This document shows, piece by piece, positions 30,572-43,499 of a DNA stretch of 64,000 bases. Origin of the DNA: a virus. The stretch lies in the IMG/VR virus record IMGVR_UViG_3300010354_000057, positions 1 through 64,000 of that record; one strand, 5' to 3'. Position 1 is the first letter of the stretch. Every line of letters begins with the position of its first letter. A model generated the notes under the pieces. The model had not been told where the DNA came from. It ran no database searches and was given only the letters and a program-made list of their open reading frames with translations. The position numbers and the translations under genes are program-made.

Positions 30572-31372
30572 ATGCCAGGATTTCCATTTAAAAATTATGG
30601 TACTTTCACAGGACCAGCAAAAAATTATGTTTTTAATGATAGTGATGCTACTTGGTGGAGTGACATTCCCATTGACACTTCTTTTAAATTAACTGATATT
30701 GGAGTTTTATTTTTTAATAACCAGGCGGATTATGCGTATTTTCACCTCTATGGTGTGTCAACAGCGTTAGTTACATTTGAAAAGAATAGTGGAGACTTAC
30801 CCAATTTACTTGCAAATATTCAAAATACAATATTTAATGGGAATATAATTATCAATGGAACAACAGTAGCGAATGATAATATCGTATGTAATGCTAACGT
30901 TGCCTGTAATGGAGTTTTAAATCTATCTGGAGTTGGAAATGCTGCTTCATACATGACAACTACCAGAACAATTGCACAATCTAAAAAATCTTTTGACATT
31001 CCTCATCCATCAAAAGATGATCATAGACTTAGGTATGTTTGTTTAGAAGGTCCAGCAGCAGAAGTTTATATTAGAGGTAAATTGGAGAATGAGAATGTTA
31101 TATCTTTACCAGAATATTGGACCGACTTAATTGATCAGGAAACAATAGGTGTGTCACTAACACCTATTGGGTATCATCAAGAATTGTTTGTAGAAAAAAT
31201 AGAATGGGGATCTAGAATTATTATTAAAAACAATTCTGGTGGATCTGTAAACTGTTATTATACTGTTACTGCAGAAAGAAAAGATACTCCAAAAAATATT
31301 CCAGAATACAAGGGGTTGACACCTAATGATTATCCAGGAGATAATAGTACATATAATGTAAATGGTTTATAG
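30572..31372 (+). CDS. Virion protein with C-terminal K.F.I.HP..CLEGP chaperone-like domain
   Basis: KSFDIPHP..LRYVCLEGP..RG..LPEYW..LTP..AERKD. Confidence 0.7.
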   Translation: MPGFPFKNYGTFTGPAKNYVFNDSDATWWSDIPIDTSFKLTDIGVLFFNNQADYAYFHLYGVSTALVTFEKNSGDLPNLLANIQNTIFNGNIIINGTTVANDNIVCNANVACNGVLNLSGVGNAASYMTTTRTIAQSKKSFDIPHPSKDDHRLRYVCLEGPAAEVYIRGKLENENVISLPEYWTDLIDQETIGVSLTPIGYHQELFVEKIEWGSRIIIKNNSGGSVNCYYTVTAERKDTPKNIPEYKGLTPNDYPGDNSTYNVNGL

Positions 31373-32049
31373 TGAATAAAGTTCATGAATTGTTTCCCTT
31401 GGTTGTTTATCAGGGGACTATAGATTGTCATAATGAATTTAAAGAGAAACATATAAATTCATTACGTGATTATTGGTTTAATGGATATCAAAATGAAAGT
31501 CCAGAATATTCTGGACGTATATTTGTTCATCATAAAAAAGAATATAAAATGTTTTTTGATGATCTTAAAAAAAATTTAGATCAATATATGGAACATTTGA
31601 ATGTTGACTATAATAAATTGAGTTATCATATAATTAAAGCGTGGGTTGGGTATCACAAAGATGATGAAACACCATCTATTCAACCACATTATCATAATGA
31701 ATCTAACATTAGTTTTGTATATTATTTAAAAACTGATGATACCTCAGATAAACTCTGTATTCAACAGCAAACAAATCGTAATGAAGTTGCTGGTGGATTA
31801 TTTGAAGTTGCCCAACAAAGAAATACTTTGTTGGGATATAACAAATATAATTGCAATTACTACACGATCACACCAACTGAGGGAACGGTTGTAATGTTTC
31901 CGAGTGATGTGTATCATTTCACTCAAAAAACAACCGAAAGAAAAGGTGAAAGAATTGTTATTCCTGGCGACATTAGGATAACTTTAAAAGAAGATAATCC
32001 AGATTATCATCAAGGATCTACACACCCATCTCAGTGGTTGGAACTTTAA
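31372..32049 (+). CDS. Putative 2OG-Fe(II) oxygenase
   Basis: LFP, AW, HYH..SNISFVYY, P.EG.VVMFPS..YH, R.VI. Confidence 0.82.
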   Translation: MNKVHELFPLVVYQGTIDCHNEFKEKHINSLRDYWFNGYQNESPEYSGRIFVHHKKEYKMFFDDLKKNLDQYMEHLNVDYNKLSYHIIKAWVGYHKDDETPSIQPHYHNESNISFVYYLKTDDTSDKLCIQQQTNRNEVAGGLFEVAQQRNTLLGYNKYNCNYYTITPTEGTVVMFPSDVYHFTQKTTERKGERIVIPGDIRITLKEDNPDYHQGSTHPSQWLEL

Positions 32050-34635: not shown

Positions 34636-34664
34636 TTGACAGACGGTTTTTGACCATGTATAAT
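34636..34664 (+). promoter_or_regulatory. Consensus sigma70 promoter
   Basis: TTGACA-N17-TATAAT. Confidence 0.85.
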
Positions 34665-34894: not shown

Positions 34895-34965
34895 GCGGGC
34901 ATGGTGTAGCGGTAACATACCATCCTTCCAAGTTGTAGTCACGGGTTCGATCCCCGTTGCCCGCT
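34895..34965 (+). tRNA. tRNA-Gly(TCC)
   Basis: GCGGGCA/TGCCCGC acceptor stem, CTTCCAA anticodon loop, GGTTCGATCC T arm. Confidence 0.9.
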
Positions 34966-35038: not shown

Positions 35039-35248
35039 ATGAATCCTTATCAAATTTCGTATAAAAAACTGAAAGAGGAAACTATTAAAACTACACCTGA
35101 AAATGTGAAAGAAGCAAATGAGGGATTATTTAATTGTACAATGACACTTCCCACTGCTGCTAAGCATTGTGGAATGTCCCAAAAAGAAATGAAATTGACA
35201 TTTTACGAATATCTTAAATATAATCCAAAAACATATGTGGGGGAATAA
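35039..35248 (+). CDS. Conserved cyanophage hypothetical protein (possible HTH)
   Basis: KTTPENV.EAN..LF...M.LP.AAKHCGM..KEMK.TF. Confidence 0.7.
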   Translation: MNPYQISYKKLKEETIKTTPENVKEANEGLFNCTMTLPTAAKHCGMSQKEMKLTFYEYLKYNPKTYVGE

Positions 35249-35303: not shown

Positions 35304-35579
35304 ATGGCGTATAGAATCGATACCACTTATTGTTGGTATACTATTGAGGGTCAGGATACTATTGTTAAAATGTATTTTATCAATGGAGTTCCTTTTACAT
35401 TTGATGAACTCCCATCAATTGCAATTAATGATCCAGAGATACTTTCTATAGCCGATAAAAACACTTCTTTTCAACCAGAAGATTTGTATAGAACATCTTT
35501 TTATTTGATAGATGAGCAAGTGCATCCTTTTTTATTTCCAGTAGATCTAGAAAACCCAGAGGAATTACCAGATGATTGA
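35304..35579 (+). CDS. Conserved cyanophage hypothetical protein
   Basis: YCWY..IVKMYFI..VPFTFDEL..YL..E..HP..F. Confidence 0.7.
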   Translation: MAYRIDTTYCWYTIEGQDTIVKMYFINGVPFTFDELPSIAINDPEILSIADKNTSFQPEDLYRTSFYLIDEQVHPFLFPVDLENPEELPDD

Positions 35580-36060
35580 AGAATTTTGTAGATACTTTGA
35601 AGGTTATTTTAATAACCAAAAACAAGCATTTGCAAATCCAAGTGAATTTGCTCTTATAGAGATTGAACATCATCAAATTTCTAGTAATAAATTTAAAGCA
35701 TCTCAAAAATATAATACTGATCCAAATCCATATAGAAAAACAATTATTGAAGTAATTGAAAAAAAAGATCATCTTCTTTTAAAAAATTATAAAGATAATG
35801 AAGAAATGAATTATCTTTCTGGTTGTGATGTTATCATGAAATATAAAGATGGTAAGTTTTTTGGTAAAAATTCCTGTAAAGAATGTATTGTACCTTGGGG
35901 AGACAAGACTACATATTTAATGACTGAAAGTATTCTTGGTGAAAACCTCTATGAAGTCATTGATCAAGGATTTAATGTAGAAAGTGATGGGCAAATCTGG
36001 GGATCTTTTAATGGATTTTTTAGATTTGATAAAATTAAATCGCTTAAAACTGGGGAGTAA
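35572..36060 (+). CDS. cpeT: CpcT/CpeT-type phycobiliprotein lyase
   Basis: G.FNN..QA..NP..FA, PYR, GCD, C.V, D.G...QIWGS..G.F.F. Confidence 0.85.
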   Translation: MIEEFCRYFEGYFNNQKQAFANPSEFALIEIEHHQISSNKFKASQKYNTDPNPYRKTIIEVIEKKDHLLLKNYKDNEEMNYLSGCDVIMKYKDGKFFGKNSCKECIVPWGDKTTYLMTESILGENLYEVIDQGFNVESDGQIWGSFNGFFRFDKIKSLKTGE

Positions 36061-36072
36061 TCCTCTATTTTC

Positions 36073-36146
36073 GCCTTCGTAGCTCAGTTGGATAGAGCAG
36101 GGCTTTTGTAAAGCTCAGGTCGCAAGTTCAAGTCTTGTCGGGGGCT
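36073..36146 (+). tRNA. tRNA-Thr(TGT)
   Basis: GCCTTCG/CGGGGGC acceptor stem, AGCTCAG D arm, GGGCT-TTTGTAA-AGCTC anticodon arm, GTTCAAGTC T loop. Confidence 0.92.
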
Positions 36147-36166
36147 TTGAGTTTATAACTCTAATA

Positions 36167-37303
36167 ATGAAAAACGAAGTAAATTTTAAATATATTGATG
36201 TATTTGATAATAAAGATGTAACTTATGATTTGGAAAAATATCCAATGAATAAGATTATTCTTAGAGAAGTACAAAAATATTATCCAGATGTTCAAGATTT
36301 AAGTCTTCTTCATGAGCATGTTGAAGGGGGAAAAGTATCTGATTTGATGTCTAAAGTTAGTAAAGATCTAACTAAGACTGAATTTTATGAATATTTTGAT
36401 GATATCGTTAAGCAATATGTGGTATCTCAAATTGATCGTGATGTTTTAATTCAGAAGTTTGGTAACGTTAGGGCAGTTATCCCAAATCAAGATAAAATTG
36501 GTGCTCTTCTTCATTTTCACCAAGGAAGATGGGTTGGTAACGGTCTTGGATTGAGAACTGTCTGGATGGCATTTACTGATTGTTATGAAAGCAATAGTTT
36601 ACAAATTCTTCCCTTAGAGGAGAGTAGAAGAATTACAATCGATGCTGTTAAAGATAATTGGTCGTATGAAAAACTCCAGGAAGAGTGTACAAAATACGCA
36701 TTTCCAGTAACAATTAAACCAGGACAATTCCATCTGTTCACTCAAGAGCATATTCATGGTAATTTTCCCAATCTTACTAATAAAACTAGAATTAGTATTG
36801 ATGTAAGAATTTTGTTGAAAGATGGTCAACCTCATCGTAAATGGCCTGGTGCATATTTCAGGAGACTTGGGGATCTTGATATTAATTCAACACCAGTAGA
36901 AATTAAACCTGGAGAATCTACAGCAACTTATGCTGAGTATGAAGGATTTAAAACAAAAGGAATTGATCTCCATTTCCAAACTCTTACCGTAAGAAACTAT
37001 TGTTCTAGAATGGGATATGTATTCCCTTATCAACATGCTGATAATGAAGGGACGCATCATGCACATTTAGAGCATTTGATTGAACATGGAAATATTGATC
37101 ATCTATTCTTGTTTAGTATTTTTTCACTACCAGATGATCCTCAAAGAAGAAAATATTTGATGGACTTGGCATTAAAAAATAATTGTAAACTTCATTTTGC
37201 AAATGAAGAGTTTGTACTTGACAATGAGAAAATGTTGAGTAAAATAGAGTACTTAAGATCATTTACGAATGATTGGACAAATCCTGTTGATCAAGTTTTA
37301 TGA
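36167..37303 (+). CDS. PhyH/StrG-like 2OG-Fe(II) oxygenase domain (HxG motif) fused to an LIC12192-like C-terminal domain
   Basis: R...P, FHQG.W.GNG, W..FT....NSL, HGN..N.T..TRISID.R; C-terminal Q....RNYC..SIF.LP..HFANE. Confidence 0.7.
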   Translation: MKNEVNFKYIDVFDNKDVTYDLEKYPMNKIILREVQKYYPDVQDLSLLHEHVEGGKVSDLMSKVSKDLTKTEFYEYFDDIVKQYVVSQIDRDVLIQKFGNVRAVIPNQDKIGALLHFHQGRWVGNGLGLRTVWMAFTDCYESNSLQILPLEESRRITIDAVKDNWSYEKLQEECTKYAFPVTIKPGQFHLFTQEHIHGNFPNLTNKTRISIDVRILLKDGQPHRKWPGAYFRRLGDLDINSTPVEIKPGESTATYAEYEGFKTKGIDLHFQTLTVRNYCSRMGYVFPYQHADNEGTHHAHLEHLIEHGNIDHLFLFSIFSLPDDPQRRKYLMDLALKNNCKLHFANEEFVLDNEKMLSKIEYLRSFTNDWTNPVDQVL

Positions 37304-37482
37304 AAATTAATTTGTGGTATTGTAATGATATGAAACAATGGCGTTGGACATTATGTGATGATTCTCGTCCAATTTTAAAACAAGAATCTGGACAAAGACC
37401 AGATCTTAGAGATGCTATGAATGATGTTGCTAATACTGTTGAATACATACTTGACAATAAGGTAAAAACTGTTATAATTTAA
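37300..37482 (+). CDS. Conserved cyanophage hypothetical protein
   Basis: MKINLWY...M.QWRWTL..QESGQ..LR.AM.DVA.TVEY. Confidence 0.7.
   Translation: MKINLWYCNDMKQWRWTLCDDSRPILKQESGQRPDLRDAMNDVANTVEYILDNKVKTVII
37451..37478 (+). promoter_or_regulatory. Sigma70-type promoter
   Basis: TTGACA-N16-TATAAT. Confidence 0.65.
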
Positions 37483-37523
37483 ATGCGATACTAATTCGCG
37501 CAGTGACCCAAAAAGTGTGACTT

Positions 37524-37550
37524 CAAAACCCTCTTTTAGAGGGTTTTGTT
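37524..37550 (+). terminator. Intrinsic terminator (possibly bidirectional)
   Basis: CAAAACCCTCT-TTT-AGAGGGTTTTG. Confidence 0.8.
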
Positions 37551-37613
37551 GTATGGAAATCATGGTTTTTTATCCGAATAAATAAAACATAGTAGAAACC
37601 TAAGAGTAATAAA

Positions 37614-40600
37614 ATGGGTCTTAGCCGCTTAGATAATTTCCTGAAAAATAGTAGAGGAAATACCCTTTATGTTGATCCATCGAGTATAGATGCTACTGAT
37701 AGTATCGAAAATCAAGGCAATTCTCTTGCCCGTCCTTTTAAATCAATCCAAAGAGCACTGATAGAAGCCGCAAGATTTTCCTATCAAAGAGGATTTGATA
37801 ATGATAGATTTGGTAGGACGACTATTATAGTTTATCCAGGTGATCATATTATTGATAATAGACCTGGATGGATACCCATACATGAAGCGCCTGTTAGTGG
37901 CAGTAATTGGAGGCAAAGAAGTGGGGCATTATCTAATAATTTTACTGCTTTTAATTTAGATTCAAATTTTGATGTATTTGATGATGAAAATGATTTATAT
38001 AAGTTCAATAGTGTTTATGGTGGAGTAATTATTCCTCGTGGAACTTCTTTAGTTGGACTAGATCTTAGAAAAACAAAAATAAGACCTAGATTTGTTCCAG
38101 ATCCAACAAATGATAACATTTCTTCAACAGCAATTTTTAGAGTAACTGGATCTTGTTATTTTTATCAATTTACTCTTTTTGATGCTGATCCAGCGGGAAC
38201 GGTTTATAATTCATATAATACTACAAAATTTGTTCCAAACTATTCTCACCATAAAGTTACTGCTTTTGAATATGCTGATGGTGCAAATCCAGTAAAATTT
38301 AATGATACATTTTTAACATATTCTACTGATAGAACGGACTTAGATTTATATTATCAGAAAATTGGATTGGCATATGGTCCATCTAGTGGTAGAGATATTC
38401 AAAATGATTATCCAAGCACTCTCATTGATGTACAAGCAAAGGTTGATGAATTTAGAATTGTTGGATCTAAAGGACAGGATGTTGGAATTACTAGCATTAA
38501 ATCTGGTAATGGTGTTACTGCTACTACGACTATTACCGTAGATCTTGAAGAGGTAATTCCAGGAATAGACGTAGATACTCCCATTAGAATTGAAGGAGTT
38601 CCAGTTTCTGGATATAATGGACAATATGTAATATCTACTGTTGAATCTCCCACTAGAATTACATATAAAACTTCTGTTGCTCCTGTAAATCCTCTTCCAA
38701 CTATTGTTAGTGGATCCCCAACTCTTAATATTGTAGTAGATACAGTTACTTCATCATCACCTTATATCTTTAACTGTTCACTAAGATCAGTTTTTGGTAT
38801 GTGTGGATTACATGCTGATGGAAGCAAAGCAGATGGATTTAAATCCATGGTTGTTGCTCAATTTACTGGTATTGGATTGCAGAAAGATGACAATGCCTTT
38901 GTGAAGTATAATTCTTCTACGGGTGTTTATGAAGATAGTACTGCTGTAACTAATATTCATACTAATTCATCTGCTTTATACAAACCAACATACGAAAGTT
39001 TTCATATTAAAGCATCTAATGATGCTTTCTTACAGTTAGTATCAATTTTTGCTATTGGTTATGCTAATCACTTCTTAGTAGAAAGTGGTGGTGATCATTC
39101 TATTACTAATTCAAACTCTAACTTTGGTGCAAAAGCATTAGTTGCTAGAGGATTTAAGAGAGAATCATTCCCAAGAGATGATACTGGATTTATAACTCAT
39201 ATTATCCCACCAAAAGAAATTGAAAATTCCGATGTAACAATTGAATTTGATGCTATTGATGTTGGAAGGACAGTTGGAATTGCTTCTACGTCTAGATTAT
39301 ATCTTTATAATAGAACTAATCCTAATGATCCCCCAAACCATATTTTAGAGGGATATAGAATAGGTGCTAAAAAAGGTGATAGTCTTCATGTATTAATTAA
39401 TGATGGTAACGGGACTACTCAATCCTTATCTGCTAGAATAGTAATGCCAAATACCCAAAACACGGGTATTTATGAATCAACTTATAGGAAAATAGTTCAT
39501 GTCGGTAGAACTAATGCTGGTATTAATAGTATTGCTGCAGATACATTAACTTTTACCACACCTCACAAATTCATAAATGGTGAAACGATTAGAATTTTTA
39601 GTAGTACTGGTGAACTTCCAGATGGATTGAATCACAATCAAGTTTATTATGCAATTACTAGTGGAGTTAATGCCGATCAAATTCAAATAGCACAAACTTT
39701 TAATGATACTGTTACTGCTGATGCTATTTCTATTAATAATAAAGGTGGAATACTATTAGTAGAGAGTAGAGTATCAGATAAAGTTTCTGGTGATCCTGGA
39801 CACCCAATTCAATTTGATACTAATGTTGGTCAATGGTATTTGACTGTAAGTGGGATATCAACCTTTAATAATTTAACACCAGCAATCGTTGGATTGGGAA
39901 CTACATCACTGGGGAATGCTACATCTAGATCATTTATAAAAAGAAAACCAGATACTAGATCTTTAAGTGATAAAATTTATAAAGCTAGATATGTTATTCC
40001 AAGAGATGCTGTAGTTGTTGCAAGACCACCTCAAGAAGGATTTGTAATTCAAGAATCTAATGATACTATTGGTGGAACATCTGCGGAAATTTTGAAGTAT
40101 AATAGTGTAGATTCTGTATCTTTATCCAATAGTTCTGAATTAAGAAACTATAGATTAATATCTAATGCTATTTGGGATAGTTTAGTAGGTATTGCGACTT
40201 ATACCACAGAAGTTCCCCATGAATTATCTGTTGGATCTTTAGTTGAAATTAAAAATATTAAAACCACGACAAACACTGCTGGAATTGGTAACAGTGGGTT
40301 TAATGGATATTATGAGGTAACTTCTAAACCAACCAGACGATCTTTTACAGTAGGATTAACTACTAATCCTGGAACTTTTATTAGCAATACCTCTTTAAGA
40401 AATCAAAATTTACCTTATTATCGTAGAGCAAGATTTAATAATACTTTTGTAGTCTATAAGACTAAAGAAATTCAAGAATATGTTCCAAATGATAAAGATG
40501 GAATTTATCATTTAACCCTTCTAAGTGTTTCTAATTCACCTAATGTTGTACCTTTTGATGGATTAAAATTTTCTCAACCAATCAAAAATCTTTACCCACA

Positions 40601-43499
40601 ATTAGATAGAGATAACTCAGATTCTGATCCACCAAAAGCAACTTCGTTTGCTCTACCAAATCCTATTGGATTAGTTGAAATTAACAACCCAGAATATAGC
40701 ATTACTAGAGAAACACTAGTAAATCAGTTACATGATTTTGCTGTTGGATTTGGATTAACCGATATTAGATCTTCGTCTGGTGTAGCGCATACTCTGTATA
40801 CAAAATTAGATCATGGACTAAACAGAATTACCACTGTTGGTATTGTTAGTACTGGTGTAAATTATGGTACTGGATCTGGAACAGACCAAACTTTATATAA
40901 TGCTCGTTTAGTTGGATTCGCTGGATCAACTACTGGAAAATTTGCTACCGCTAATGTAAAGATTAATGCTACTGGTAGAATTACTGCTGTTAATATTGTT
41001 GATGGTGGTAGTGCATATGGAATTGGCAATACTTTAGCCGTTGTTGGTATTGCAACAACTACTGGGCATATTGTTGGTGTTGTATCTGTAACTGGAATAT
41101 ACAATAATATTGGAGATTGTATTGCCATAGAAGGTGTACAAGGGGATACATTTAAAACTTATAATAATCTGTATAGAATTACAAGTATAAATGTAGGGCA
41201 AGAAAAACAAATACAGGTTTCTTCATCATCAACAGTTACTGCTGATTATGAATTTGTTGGATCATTCCCGATAACTGGTGTTAATACTAATGGATTAATT
41301 AATGTTAATAGTGATGCTTTGCTTTATACTGCTGCATATGTTTCTGGTAAAACTTTAGGAATTTCATCGATAACATATACCAAAACAACTGGTATTGCTA
41401 GTGTTACTTTTTCTGAACCTCATGGTTATTATGTTGACAATAAAATAAGAATTAGTGGATTTAATGAAGGATTTTATAATGATGATTTTATTGTAAAGAA
41501 AATTCATAGTGTAACGTCTATAGATGTTTTTGTTGGTGTATCTACTATTTCTTTAGGAACGACTTCAACTTCTGGTGCTTATGCTTTTAAACCAGGATTT
41601 GGTGCTCAAGGTGGATTTTTATCGGATAATAATGAAAGAACATCTGGAAGAATAACTCCATATTATGCTGGCATTACAACTACTTTATCTGTAGCATTAA
41701 CTAACCCAAGCACAAATGTCCTTACTGTTGGCAATGCTTTAAGACTTAATCTACAAGTTGGAGATTATTTGATAGTTAATAATGAAATTATGAGGGTGTC
41801 CTCTACTGTTACATCTTCAACACAAATTAATGTTTTCCGTGGTTTATTTGGTAGTTCTAAAGAAAGTCACTCTGTAAATTCTGTTATAAGAAGAATTAAA
41901 TTCTTACCAATTGAATTTAGAAGAAATTCAATTCTTCGTGCATCTGGACATACATTTGAATACCTTGGATTTGGTCCTGGTAACTATTCCACAGCGTTAC
42001 CAGAAAGACAGGATAGAAAATTCACCGATACTGAAAGAATACTTTCTCAGGCAGTTAGTGATGACGGTGGTGCTCCAATCTACACAGGAATGGATGATCG
42101 TGGTAATAATTATACTGTTAATGCCGTTACTAATTCGTCAACAGGTCAAGAACTTCTAGTAAATACTCCAATTCCTTCTGTAAGAGGTGAAGATCTAACT
42201 TCTGATACAACTTCTATTGGATTTGATGTTCAATCTACTTCAGAATTGACGATTGAAAGATCTTTAAAGGTTGAAGGTGGAACTTCTGGGACAATAATTT
42301 CCGAATTTAATGGACCTGTTATATTCAATAATAAATTATCGTCTAATTCTGATGAAGGAATTGAGGCAAACTCTTTATTCCTTCAGGGTGATGCTACTAT
42401 TTCTAGAAGATATACTGTGGGTGTATCTCAACCATCTCTTGCAGGTATCCCAGGAGATATTGTATTCTATTCTGATCCACATCCAGGTGGCACCATTGGA
42501 TGGGTATATACTGTAGAAAATGATTGGAAAGAATTTGCACCAATTAAGAATAATAATGGTCATTTTGTAGGTATCTTTAGTGGAACATTTATTGGTGATG
42601 GATCTAATCTTAGTAGTGTTTCTGATATTTGGGTATTTGATGGGGTTGGTATTTCAACCACTGCAAATGTTGGTATTGAAACTACCTCAGCAAAACCAGG
42701 ATATTCTTTATATGCTTCTGGTCCAGTATTATTTGAAAATAACGTAGAGTTTAGATCGCAATCACTTCTCTGGAATATCACTAATGGTTTCTTAGTTAAT
42801 ACTGGTATTACCACATTTAATCAACAATTAAATGCTAATACATTCAGAACAGTAGGTGTTGCTACGTTCCAAAATGATGTTATTGTAACTACAAACCCAG
42901 CGACAACTGGTGATACCGCAGGAAATTATTTAAAATTTGTACAAACTGATACTAATATAAACGCTTCTTATTTCTACGGTGGTATTCTTTGGGATGGTAA
43001 TGATTCTGGGAATAATGGGACCAGGGGATATATTAGAGGTGAATCTGAGGGAACATCTGGACAATTTGCTATAACTTTTGCCACGCAAGGATCTGGTGCA
43101 AGTAATCCTCAAGAGAGATTAAGACTTGATAGTGCTGGTGATGTAAATGTTATTAATAACTTAAACGTTGGTGTTAATATTGTTGCTGCAGGTGAAATAA
43201 CCGCTAATTCTGATGAAAGAATAAAAACCAATATTAAGACAATTGACAATGCACTCGACAAAGTTCTACAACTTCGTGGAGTTGAGTATGATCGTACAGA
43301 TATTGACAAGCATCAAATTGGTGTTATTGCACAAGAAGTTGAAAAAGTCTTCCCAGATCTAGTCCTAGATGGTGAGAAAAAGTCTGTTGCTTATGGTAAC
43401 ATGGTGGCAGTTCTTATTGAGGCAATCAAAGAGCAACAAAAGCAAATTGATGCTCAATCCAAGCAAATTGAAGAACTGATCAAAAGACTTGACGGTTAA
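37614..43499 (+). CDS. Large tail fibre/virion protein with C-terminal peptidase S74 chaperone domain
   Basis: MGLSRLDNFLK..LYVDP..RPFK.IQRA N-terminus; SDERIK.NI..I..AL..V..LRGV.Y..IGVIAQEVE plus coiled coil. Confidence 0.88.
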   Translation: MGLSRLDNFLKNSRGNTLYVDPSSIDATDSIENQGNSLARPFKSIQRALIEAARFSYQRGFDNDRFGRTTIIVYPGDHIIDNRPGWIPIHEAPVSGSNWRQRSGALSNNFTAFNLDSNFDVFDDENDLYKFNSVYGGVIIPRGTSLVGLDLRKTKIRPRFVPDPTNDNISSTAIFRVTGSCYFYQFTLFDADPAGTVYNSYNTTKFVPNYSHHKVTAFEYADGANPVKFNDTFLTYSTDRTDLDLYYQKIGLAYGPSSGRDIQNDYPSTLIDVQAKVDEFRIVGSKGQDVGITSIKSGNGVTATTTITVDLEEVIPGIDVDTPIRIEGVPVSGYNGQYVISTVESPTRITYKTSVAPVNPLPTIVSGSPTLNIVVDTVTSSSPYIFNCSLRSVFGMCGLHADGSKADGFKSMVVAQFTGIGLQKDDNAFVKYNSSTGVYEDSTAVTNIHTNSSALYKPTYESFHIKASNDAFLQLVSIFAIGYANHFLVESGGDHSITNSNSNFGAKALVARGFKRESFPRDDTGFITHIIPPKEIENSDVTIEFDAIDVGRTVGIASTSRLYLYNRTNPNDPPNHILEGYRIGAKKGDSLHVLINDGNGTTQSLSARIVMPNTQNTGIYESTYRKIVHVGRTNAGINSIAADTLTFTTPHKFINGETIRIFSSTGELPDGLNHNQVYYAITSGVNADQIQIAQTFNDTVTADAISINNKGGILLVESRVSDKVSGDPGHPIQFDTNVGQWYLTVSGISTFNNLTPAIVGLGTTSLGNATSRSFIKRKPDTRSLSDKIYKARYVIPRDAVVVARPPQEGFVIQESNDTIGGTSAEILKYNSVDSVSLSNSSELRNYRLISNAIWDSLVGIATYTTEVPHELSVGSLVEIKNIKTTTNTAGIGNSGFNGYYEVTSKPTRRSFTVGLTTNPGTFISNTSLRNQNLPYYRRARFNNTFVVYKTKEIQEYVPNDKDGIYHLTLLSVSNSPNVVPFDGLKFSQPIKNLYPQLDRDNSDSDPPKATSFALPNPIGLVEINNPEYSITRETLVNQLHDFAVGFGLTDIRSSSGVAHTLYTKLDHGLNRITTVGIVSTGVNYGTGSGTDQTLYNARLVGFAGSTTGKFATANVKINATGRITAVNIVDGGSAYGIGNTLAVVGIATTTGHIVGVVSVTGIYNNIGDCIAIEGVQGDTFKTYNNLYRITSINVGQEKQIQVSSSSTVTADYEFVGSFPITGVNTNGLINVNSDALLYTAAYVSGKTLGISSITYTKTTGIASVTFSEPHGYYVDNKIRISGFNEGFYNDDFIVKKIHSVTSIDVFVGVSTISLGTTSTSGAYAFKPGFGAQGGFLSDNNERTSGRITPYYAGITTTLSVALTNPSTNVLTVGNALRLNLQVGDYLIVNNEIMRVSSTVTSSTQINVFRGLFGSSKESHSVNSVIRRIKFLPIEFRRNSILRASGHTFEYLGFGPGNYSTALPERQDRKFTDTERILSQAVSDDGGAPIYTGMDDRGNNYTVNAVTNSSTGQELLVNTPIPSVRGEDLTSDTTSIGFDVQSTSELTIERSLKVEGGTSGTIISEFNGPVIFNNKLSSNSDEGIEANSLFLQGDATISRRYTVGVSQPSLAGIPGDIVFYSDPHPGGTIGWVYTVENDWKEFAPIKNNNGHFVGIFSGTFIGDGSNLSSVSDIWVFDGVGISTTANVGIETTSAKPGYSLYASGPVLFENNVEFRSQSLLWNITNGFLVNTGITTFNQQLNANTFRTVGVATFQNDVIVTTNPATTGDTAGNYLKFVQTDTNINASYFYGGILWDGNDSGNNGTRGYIRGESEGTSGQFAITFATQGSGASNPQERLRLDSAGDVNVINNLNVGVNIVAAGEITANSDERIKTNIKTIDNALDKVLQLRGVEYDRTDIDKHQIGVIAQEVEKVFPDLVLDGEKKSVAYGNMVAVLIEAIKEQQKQIDAQSKQIEELIKRLDG

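Follow-up and report, generated by a model that had tools for sequence, protein, structure and literature searches.

A cyanophage fusion protein with Gly at the iron-ligand Asp position of an Fe(II)/2-oxoglutarate enzyme: a candidate halogenase

The fusion gene and its product

The window analysed here is a stretch of 64,000 nucleotides (positions 1 to 64,000 of IMG/VR virus record IMGVR_UViG_3300010354_000057) and derives from a T4-like cyanophage. The source record is 88,108 bases long and is estimated to be 42 % complete. An open reading frame (ORF) in this window, referred to here as the fusion gene, joins an Fe(II)/2-oxoglutarate (2OG) oxygenase domain to a second, unrelated domain. The product is a two-domain auxiliary enzyme of the phage, in which Gly is found where the iron-binding carboxylate is expected. 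What is new is a clade of Fe/2OG enzymes, here in a virus, that lack this carboxylate, show a Gln co-varying with its loss and are fused to a new partner. The gene, its domains and the active-site residues are as follows.

36167..37303, + strand: fusion gene (P0001), ORF call of 378 aa with two domains
36188..36886, + strand: N-terminal domain, about residues 8-240, PhyH-fold Fe(II)/2OG oxygenase
36518..36526, + strand: H118-Q119-G120, the proximal His, and Gly at the carboxylate-ligand position
36743..36745, + strand: Gln193, four residues before the distal His
36755..36757, + strand: His197, distal iron ligand, which aligns with the distal His of PtlH, CytC3 and SyrB2
36788..36796, + strand: R208-I209-S210, R-x-S motif expected to bind the C5-carboxylate of 2OG
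36908..37300, + strand: C-terminal domain, residues 248-378, LIC12192/TIGR04323, with the serine-recombinase catalytic-domain fold

The role given to R-x-S is the one expected by analogy with the RXS motif described for AspH in an extract of PMC6817910.

Gly replaces Asp in the iron site

An alignment of 32 homologues sharing 31-97 % identity, designated A1, was used as a search profile against 1.84 billion cluster representatives (clusters at 50 % identity) and gave 1568 matches at E ≤ 1e-3, of which 150 were listed. Of these, 37 were fragments and were dropped, leaving 113 that span both His regions. They are referred to below as the representatives, and counts given for them apply among the matches listed. 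The register of Gly120 was judged by alignment column and not by active-site geometry.

In the G120 column, 91 representatives have H-x-D and 22 have H-x-G. When 245 proteins were aligned to the family hidden Markov model, H-x-G/A was found in 126 (113 HQG, 11 HTG, 1 HNG and 1 HQA) and H-x-D in 92, with 27 not covering the column, and, apart from one sequence carrying an extra residue, no indel separates the His from the G120 column. Among solved structures, PtlH is nearest to the phage protein by sequence (E 0.0018), and its F-H-Q-D-G-F-Y aligns with F-H-Q-G-R-W-V of the latter. The comparison with TIGR04324 homologues that the preliminary description of this locus had called for gave the same contrast, as six of six true, stand-alone members (208-276 bits, 241-269 aa) are H-x-D (four HSD, one HGD and one HAD), whereas the phage protein is H-x-G. 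Thus, of the features common to the enzyme superfamily, the two His and the 2OG-binding Arg are present (H118, H197 and R208, the latter with S210, all aligned to PtlH, CytC3 and SyrB2), but the Asp/Glu expected two residues after the proximal His is replaced by Gly120. The three motifs singled out in the preliminary description, namely FHQGRWVGNG, HGN with the distal His and TRISID with the 2OG Arg, were all located (as HFHQGRWVGNG, HIHGN with H197, and KTRISID with R208 and S210).

The remainder of the site is strongly conserved. H118, Q119, G120, H197, R208 and S210 are invariant in A1 (32/32). Among 81 viral copies, HQG is found in 77 and the other four are truncated at the 5' end, so that all 77 covering the region have it, and Q193, H197 and R208 are present in 81/81. 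The viral copies that keep HQG, Q193, H197 and R208 span 41-97 % identity. HxG was also found in 10/10 bacterial genome loci covering the region, though these loci were retrieved with search patterns drawn from the HxG clade and are biased toward it. Among the representatives, R208 is present in 22/22 HxG and 91/91 HxD sequences, and S210 in 20/22 and 90/91, respectively. W133, F191, G198, N202 and both His are found in 22/22 HxG and in 83-91 of the 91 HxD representatives.

Taken together, the alignments indicate that Gly replaces Asp in the same column and is not a chance feature or an error. They also indicate that the family is ancestrally one of normal 2-His-1-Asp oxygenases, and that the phage lineage swapped Asp for Gly. 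Retention of HQG in 77/77 viral copies and in 32/32 A1 rows argues that the replacement is under selection.

Other acidic residues were considered as substitutes for the missing ligand. No Asp/Glu that could rebuild the triad is specific to the clade when the 22 HxG and 91 HxD representatives are compared. D212 is Asp/Glu in 22/22 HxG sequences, but the acidic residue is equally kept in HxD sequences (83/91), and E194 is acidic in only 16/22 HxG sequences. A second Asp/Glu completing the triad, named in the preliminary description as the finding that would overturn its proposal, therefore finds no support from conservation.

Gln193 accompanies the loss of Asp

The strongest correlate of Gly120 is Gln193, found in all 22 HxG representatives but in only 2 of the 91 HxD ones among the matches listed. 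At this position the 91 HxD sequences have Ser (28), Pro (15) or Asn (14), and the rest are mostly small residues. HMMER alignment to 2fct and 3gja, which is ungapped here and anchored on the distal His, places Gln193 at the Ser of F-W-S-x-x-M-H in SyrB2 and CytC3. This Ser, Ser231 in SyrB2, reportedly lines the chloride pocket. Gln193 could support a halide, or could itself fill the vacated site or ligate the iron.

A quick maximum-likelihood tree of 104 N-terminal domains, constructed with the trait columns removed and having long branches, places all HxG rows within one half, where they are interleaved with 19 HxD rows. Nine Asp/Gly changes are needed on the free tree, only one of which is forced by well-supported branches, and the approximately unbiased (AU) test rejects a single HxG clade (p 0.007). 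Repeated coupled switching of Gly120 and Gln193 is suggested.

Family assignment and structure of the N-terminal domain

The Pfam family PhyH (PF05721) is matched at E 5e-7 with 30.6 bits, above the cut-off of 22. The TIGR04324 model, 'sporadic carbohydrate cluster 2OG-Fe(II) oxygenase', has a cut-off of 150 and gives 85.3 bits over residues 31-215 (86.3 bits when run on the genome), and the fusion protein is not a member of this family. The TIGR04323 model, 'LIC12192 family', scores 57.3 bits over residues 255-363 (model positions 5-115 of 122), barely above the cut-off of 55. The fused C-terminal LIC12192-type domain recognized in the preliminary description is thus borne out, by a score just over the threshold. 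There is no family for the fusion protein in PHROGs. A tblastn search of 50,697 deposited phage records, from which the window's own record or very near ones may be left out, gave no match to it at E ≤ 1e-5.

In total, 95 homologues of the fusion protein were found. Both domains are fused in 63/91 HxD and 18/22 HxG representatives among the matches listed, and as the two families occur both fused and separate, they probably work together. A literature search found no published function for TIGR04324 or for TIGR04323/LIC12192.

The AF2 model made with A1 has a pLDDT of 91.7 and a pTM of 0.89, and the part of the N-terminal domain with the lowest confidence is a Gly-rich loop (residues 121-130, mean 76). 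The best PDB matches in Foldseek were CurA Hal (2.3e-8), ThoJ (5.3e-8), SyrB2 (1e-7) and PtlH (2.7e-7), and the E values for the fold family range from 1e-8 to 1e-6. With VIA-align, the highest Z scores were those of PtlH (13.3), AviO1 (12.7), EvdMO1 (12.7), PHYHD1 (12.1) and PhyH (11.3), and the structural neighbours that act on sugars are AviO1, EvdO1, EvdO2, HygX and KanJ. In BFVD, only generic PhyH/2OG folds were found (9-19 % identity, query-normalised TM-score ≤ 0.39). As modelled, the N-terminal fold does not discriminate a halogenase from a hydroxylase.

The C-terminal domain has a serine-recombinase fold

Residues 248-378 were also modelled alone (pLDDT 82.8). VIA-align matched this model to phiC31 integrase (4bqq) at Z 12.1, with 123 residues aligned and a root-mean-square deviation of 3.1, followed by TP901-1 (3bvp; Z 11.3), Bxb1 (10.8), Sin (10.5) and gamma-delta resolvase (2rsl; 10.0). 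The 12 chains at Z 8.8-12.1 comprise only serine recombinases and resolvase-type proteins without a name, after which the scores drop to Z 7.0. The same fold was seen with the whole-protein model. A search of a protein atlas with the C-terminal domain yielded no more than leads (scores 0.76-0.83); one cluster, at score 0.76, has Resolvase on 18 % of it.

However, identity to the serine recombinases is only 6-17 %, and the C-terminal domain is without a DNA-binding domain. Its invariant residues in A1 (Q271, Y278, S317 and H343) differ from the conserved residues of those enzymes, and a Pfam scan at E up to 1 found PhyH only, with no Resolvase match in the fusion protein. The first strand is Y-A-E-Y-E-G, in which we take the nucleophile-Ser motif to have no counterpart. 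Function as a serine recombinase was rejected, as only the fold speaks for it and there is neither a family match nor a DNA-binding domain. A weak sequence match to type II 3-dehydroquinase (E 0.43) was set aside because the fold search points elsewhere. We read the modelled domain as a resolvase-fold module with a different ligand or chemistry, and not as a recombinase. This provides a first structural handle on the uncharacterised LIC12192/TIGR04323 domain.

Immediate surroundings of the fusion gene

The features found around the fusion gene are listed in order of position.

31372-32049, + strand: second 2OG-Fe(II) oxygenase gene, unrelated to the fusion gene (PHROG 81, E 1.7e-28)
34636-34664, + strand: perfect sigma-70 consensus match (TTGACA/TATAAT, 12/12)
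34895-34965, + strand: tRNA-Gly(TCC), 1.2 kb upstream of the fusion gene
35195..35224, + strand: perfect sigma-70 consensus match (TTGACA-18-TATAAT), a consensus match only
35572-36060, + strand: cpeT-like antenna-protein gene (PHROG 488, E 1.3e-37), directly upstream of tRNA-Thr
36073..36146, + strand: tRNA-Thr, anticodon TGT (ARAGORN), ending 20 nt 5' of the fusion gene
37300..37482, + strand: 60-aa ORF, the ATG of which overlaps the fusion-gene stop (ATGA)
37451..37478, + strand: perfect sigma-70 consensus match in the last part of the 60-aa ORF, before the tail-fibre gene
37525..37547, + strand: hairpin with a perfect 10-bp stem and a 3-nt loop, located after the 60-aa ORF and before the tail-fibre gene
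37614..43499, + strand: tail-fibre gene, 1961 aa (PHROG 529 tail fiber protein, 1105.5 bits), the conserved downstream neighbour

The gene follows tRNA-Thr directly, as the preliminary description had it, and with tRNA-Gly the islet contains two tRNA genes. From the cpeT-like gene, the phage can be recognized as a cyanophage, and the islet as an auxiliary and not a structural one. Baseplate and fibre genes are found near the fusion gene in the window. At 36001-38000 the G+C content is 0.328 and resembles that of the neighbouring DNA (the window ranges from about 0.25 to 0.38). The 60-aa ORF (cluster 9) was found in 18 viral loci and is also kept in phages without the fusion gene. It is matched in phages Bellamy and S-SM2, where it is annotated as 'hypothetical protein'. 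Homologues of the second oxygenase gene in the viral loci match Pfam 2OG-FeII_Oxy_5.

The three 12/12 sigma-70 matches (16-18 nt spacers) lie inside 3 kb and are all on the coding strand. The one at 35195..35224 is a candidate promoter for the run ORF91, cpeT-like gene, tRNA-Thr, fusion gene and ORF60. The hairpin at 37525..37547 was not counted by the terminator scan because its T-run belongs to the stem. Since a promoter match and a hairpin lie between the fusion and fibre genes, adjacency need not mean co-expression, and from this arrangement the fusion gene appears to be grouped with cpeT and tRNA-Thr rather than with the tail-fibre gene. A scan of the 64-kb window found no copy of the T4 late-promoter-like motif TATAAATA near the fusion gene. 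Over the whole window this motif is strongly depleted, with 2 copies (18069, - strand; 57780, + strand) against 13.4 +/- 3.6 expected from shuffles, all 100 of which had at least 2 copies. No RNA dataset containing window positions 36000-37600 was found; one DNA-type run holds 62 % of the sampled words.

Distribution and gene neighbourhoods

Among deposited phages, the Synechococcus phages Bellamy and S-SM2 come closest to the window in DNA sequence, but the match is limited to tRNA-Thr, the small ORF and the first part of the tail-fibre gene. In IMG/VR, 258 of 324 candidate stretches encode a relative of the fusion protein, and the gene is thus common in uncultured cyanophage contigs. Neighbourhoods were examined for the window and 80 of the 258 viral loci by clustering the ORFs, and two contexts are distinguished here.

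In context A, that of the window, the tail-fibre gene (cluster 2) is downstream of the fusion gene, either directly or after 1-3 small ORFs. This arrangement was seen in the window and in 51/80 loci; many of the other loci end before the tail-fibre position. The fusion proteins of context A share 57-97 % identity, and further 2OG oxygenases (2OG-FeII_Oxy_5 and prolyl-hydroxylase-like 2OG-FeII_Oxy_3) are encoded upstream. A sulfotransferase-like gene (cluster 25) is upstream in nine context A loci, e.g. at L034:4115-4705 (+).

In context B, the fusion gene is flanked by genes for a B12-binding radical-SAM protein (15 loci) and GTP cyclohydrolase I (17 loci). Genes for an NAD-dependent epimerase/dehydratase, a DegT-type aminotransferase fragment, PTPS/QueD and a phosphoribosyltransferase are nearby. 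Context B loci include L018, L029, L030, L035, L048, L059 and L061. Sugar-tailoring genes are mixed with deazapurine-type genes in this context.

Among the bacterial loci, the Roseivirga homologue (37 % identity, HQG) has as neighbours ABC-2/ABC exporter genes and genes for a sulfotransferase, GDP-mannose 4,6-dehydratase, an epimerase, GT2 and a GDSL protein, together with two weak NodZ/FUT8-like matches that are below the Pfam cut-offs. Sulfotransferase-family genes are therefore found near the fusion gene both in this polysaccharide cluster (L082:3820-4638, -) and in the cyanophage loci. The Kiloniellaceae homologue (L083) adjoins a Poly_export (polysaccharide export) gene. The Planctomycetota loci are less informative on context; in one, a separate PhyH-family gene (L085:7003-7923, +; E 6.5e-18) is directly upstream of the fusion gene. 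Given these polysaccharide and sugar gene contexts, a sugar or glycan substrate is the best-supported guess.

Proposed function and alternatives

The function that we favour, though tentatively and with slightly less than an even chance of its being correct, is that of an Fe/2OG halogenase, possibly a cryptic one, acting on a sugar-type substrate. The chemistry proposed is close to a coin toss. The iron would be held by two protein His only, and the freed site would take a cellular anion (chloride or bromide), stabilised by the Gln193 amide. Decarboxylation of 2OG would lead to a haloferryl that abstracts hydrogen, and the halogen would be returned to the substrate carbon. The substrate would be of sugar type, either a nucleotide sugar or a glycan precursor, and the C-terminal domain would bind it or process it further. 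The halogen may be cryptic, that is, displaced in a following step. A more specific proposal, namely a new and widespread clade of radical halogenases carried by cyanophages, in which the sugar-type substrate is held, perhaps covalently, on the resolvase-fold domain and this domain then displaces the halogen, is unlikely to be right in all its parts. If such cryptic halogenation occurs, it would mean glycan or nucleotide-sugar tailoring during infection.

The published work that bears on this proposal is drawn on here in the form of extracts. Replacement of the triad Asp/Glu by Gly/Ala is described as the defining feature of Fe/2OG halogenases in PMC7170919, in which a G-to-D change turns DAH back into a hydroxylase, and HXG/A is the mining filter for nucleotide halogenases in PMC11186838. 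By this measure, the conserved HQG has the HxG/A of a halogenase. In HalA carrying D144G, halogen rebound requires the second-sphere Asn224 and Ile151, and the two together are enough for it (bioRxiv 10.1101/2024.09.19.613983), and the appearance of Gln together with Gly in the phage family fits this second-sphere amide logic. The preliminary description had proposed either a radical halogenase or an oxygenase with altered chemistry. That either/or frame still holds, and its premise, the replacement of Asp by Gly, is strengthened (91/113 representatives and 6/6 TIGR04324 members H-x-D), but halogenation itself stays a proposal.

A number of observations weigh against a halogenase. HxG is necessary but not sufficient for halogenation. 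The HalA variant I151N/N224V retains an intact chloride site and yet only hydroxylates (bioRxiv 10.1101/2024.09.19.613983, extract), and AspH, a two-His hydroxylase, showed no halogenase activity with chloride according to the extract of PMC6817910; extracts of PMC10947486 and PMC13168262 also present AspH as a two-His hydroxylase. The match to TIGR01762, 'chlorinating enzyme' (SyrB2/CmaB type), is negligible, at 16.2 bits against 226.3 (E 0.0048, residues 177-209 only). In Foldseek, PhyH-type hydroxylases are within about tenfold of CurA Hal and SyrB2 in E value, and with VIA-align the hydroxylases PtlH and AviO1 outrank SyrB2 (Z 10.7), CurA Hal (10.2), WelO5 (9.9) and HalB (9.5). A long Gln that replaces small residues exactly when Asp is lost may fill space or ligate the iron. 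The coupling of Gly and Gln may also be partly phylogenetic, as only one independent pair rests on supported branches. Literature searches found no halogenated glycan, no paper on this protein family, and no phage or sugar-linked Fe/2OG halogenase. We know of no halogenated bacterial or viral glycan.

A sizeable chance, though one clearly short of even, goes to an oxygenase that does not halogenate (a hydroxylase, desaturase, epimerase or similar). The iron would be held by the two His plus Gln193, or with water or a substrate carboxylate in the vacated position, and the enzyme would oxidise the same sugar-type substrate but with no halide. AspH provides the example of a two-His 2OG enzyme that is a dedicated hydroxylase (PMC6817910, extract). 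The canonical relatives in TIGR04324 have HxD and are normal oxygenases of carbohydrate clusters, and the top VIA-align neighbours are hydroxylases or oxidases acting on terpenoid and sugar substrates. Gln193 arises only upon loss of Asp, in place of small residues, which is the pattern of a relocated or compensating ligand, and there are precedents for iron coordination by Gln (isopenicillin N synthase and methylphosphonate synthase). Glycans often contain oxidised sugars, whereas, to our knowledge, halogenated ones are not known. Conversely, we know of no native 2OG oxygenase in which Gln replaces the triad carboxylate, the characterised HxA/HxG enzymes that surface in PhyH fold searches (SyrB2, CytC3 and CurA Hal) are all halogenases, and repeated removal of a working Asp (AU test, p 0.007) is hard to explain if the chemistry is unchanged.

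That the enzyme modifies a phage or host protein, e.g. the giant tail fibre encoded downstream, is improbable, although not exclusive of the other possibilities. The position of the tail-fibre gene in the window and 51/80 viral loci would fit a protein substrate, as would the several further 2OG-Fe(II) oxygenases, among them prolyl-hydroxylase-like 2OG-FeII_Oxy_3, that this region of the phage encodes, and the best-known two-His enzyme, AspH, is a protein hydroxylase (PMC6817910, extract). However, the bacterial homologues are in polysaccharide clusters with no fibre gene, 15-17 viral loci have the sugar/nucleotide-type context without a fibre, and both domains match NCBIfam 'carbohydrate cluster' families. 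In addition, a perfect sigma-70-type match and a 10-bp hairpin separate the end of the operon from the fibre gene.

A catalytically dead or purely structural protein with no productive iron binding, as the loss of one of three canonical ligands might suggest, is very unlikely given that the His ligands, the 2OG motif, W133, F191, G198 and N202 are conserved across HxG and HxD representatives, that every viral copy covering them keeps HQG, Q193, H197 and R208 at 41-97 % identity, and that the model is confident (pLDDT 91.7). Some other chemistry accounts for the remainder.

If the fusion protein is a halogenase, it would be the first viral Fe/2OG halogenase as far as literature searches show and the first one tied to carbohydrate metabolism, and it would define a new, easily mined clade (HxG plus Gln) among the few enzymes for selective C-H functionalisation. 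If it is not, it would be a 2OG oxygenase that naturally has two His (or two His and one Gln) as ligands and is closely related to HxD enzymes, and so a system for asking what beyond carboxylate loss decides between hydroxylation and halogenation. Either way, the metal site is unusual in one of the numerous cyanophage genes that go by the anonymous label '2OG-Fe(II) oxygenase'.

Comparison with known systems

The cyanophage halogenases described in extracts of PMC3037559, PMC2984593 and PMC10452541, the only ones that literature searches brought up, are flavin-dependent enzymes of the PrnA/VirX1 type. These act on aromatic substrates and are unrelated to the fusion protein in fold and mechanism. 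In the same extracts, cyanophage 2OG-Fe(II) oxygenases and PhyH proteins are treated only generically, as 2OG consumers or repair enzymes.

Human AspH (aspartate/asparagine beta-hydroxylase), as described in the extracts cited above, has in common with the fusion protein the two-His iron site and the R-x-S 2OG site. However, it belongs to a different sequence family, has a protein substrate and a tetratricopeptide repeat (TPR) partner domain, and hydroxylates rather than halogenates. AspH was absent from the sequence and fold match lists of the fusion protein.

HalA and BesD combine HxG with a second-sphere amide (Asn224 in HalA, from the bioRxiv extract), analogous to Gly120 and Gln193. They differ in belonging to another fold subfamily (HalB, Z 9.5) and in using free amino acids as substrates. 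Asn224 of HalA is also located after the distal His (H209), whereas Gln193 precedes it in the phage protein.

SyrB2, CytC3 and CurA Hal share with the fusion protein the PhyH-type double-stranded beta-helix, a two-His site and replacement of the carboxylate by a small residue, and the strands with the distal His and T-x-W can be aligned. Identity is 10-18 %, and these enzymes are HxA where the phage protein is HxG. The residue four positions ahead of the distal His is Ser in SyrB2 and CytC3 and Gln193 in the phage protein. The substrate of SyrB2, CytC3 and CurA Hal is on a phosphopantetheinyl carrier protein, whereas the phage protein has a fused resolvase-fold domain and a carbohydrate context.

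The nearest named families for the respective domains are TIGR04324 and TIGR04323, and the phage protein fuses both. The TIGR04324 members tested are stand-alone proteins with H-x-D, whereas the phage protein, at 85.3 bits to this family, has H-x-G and Gln193.

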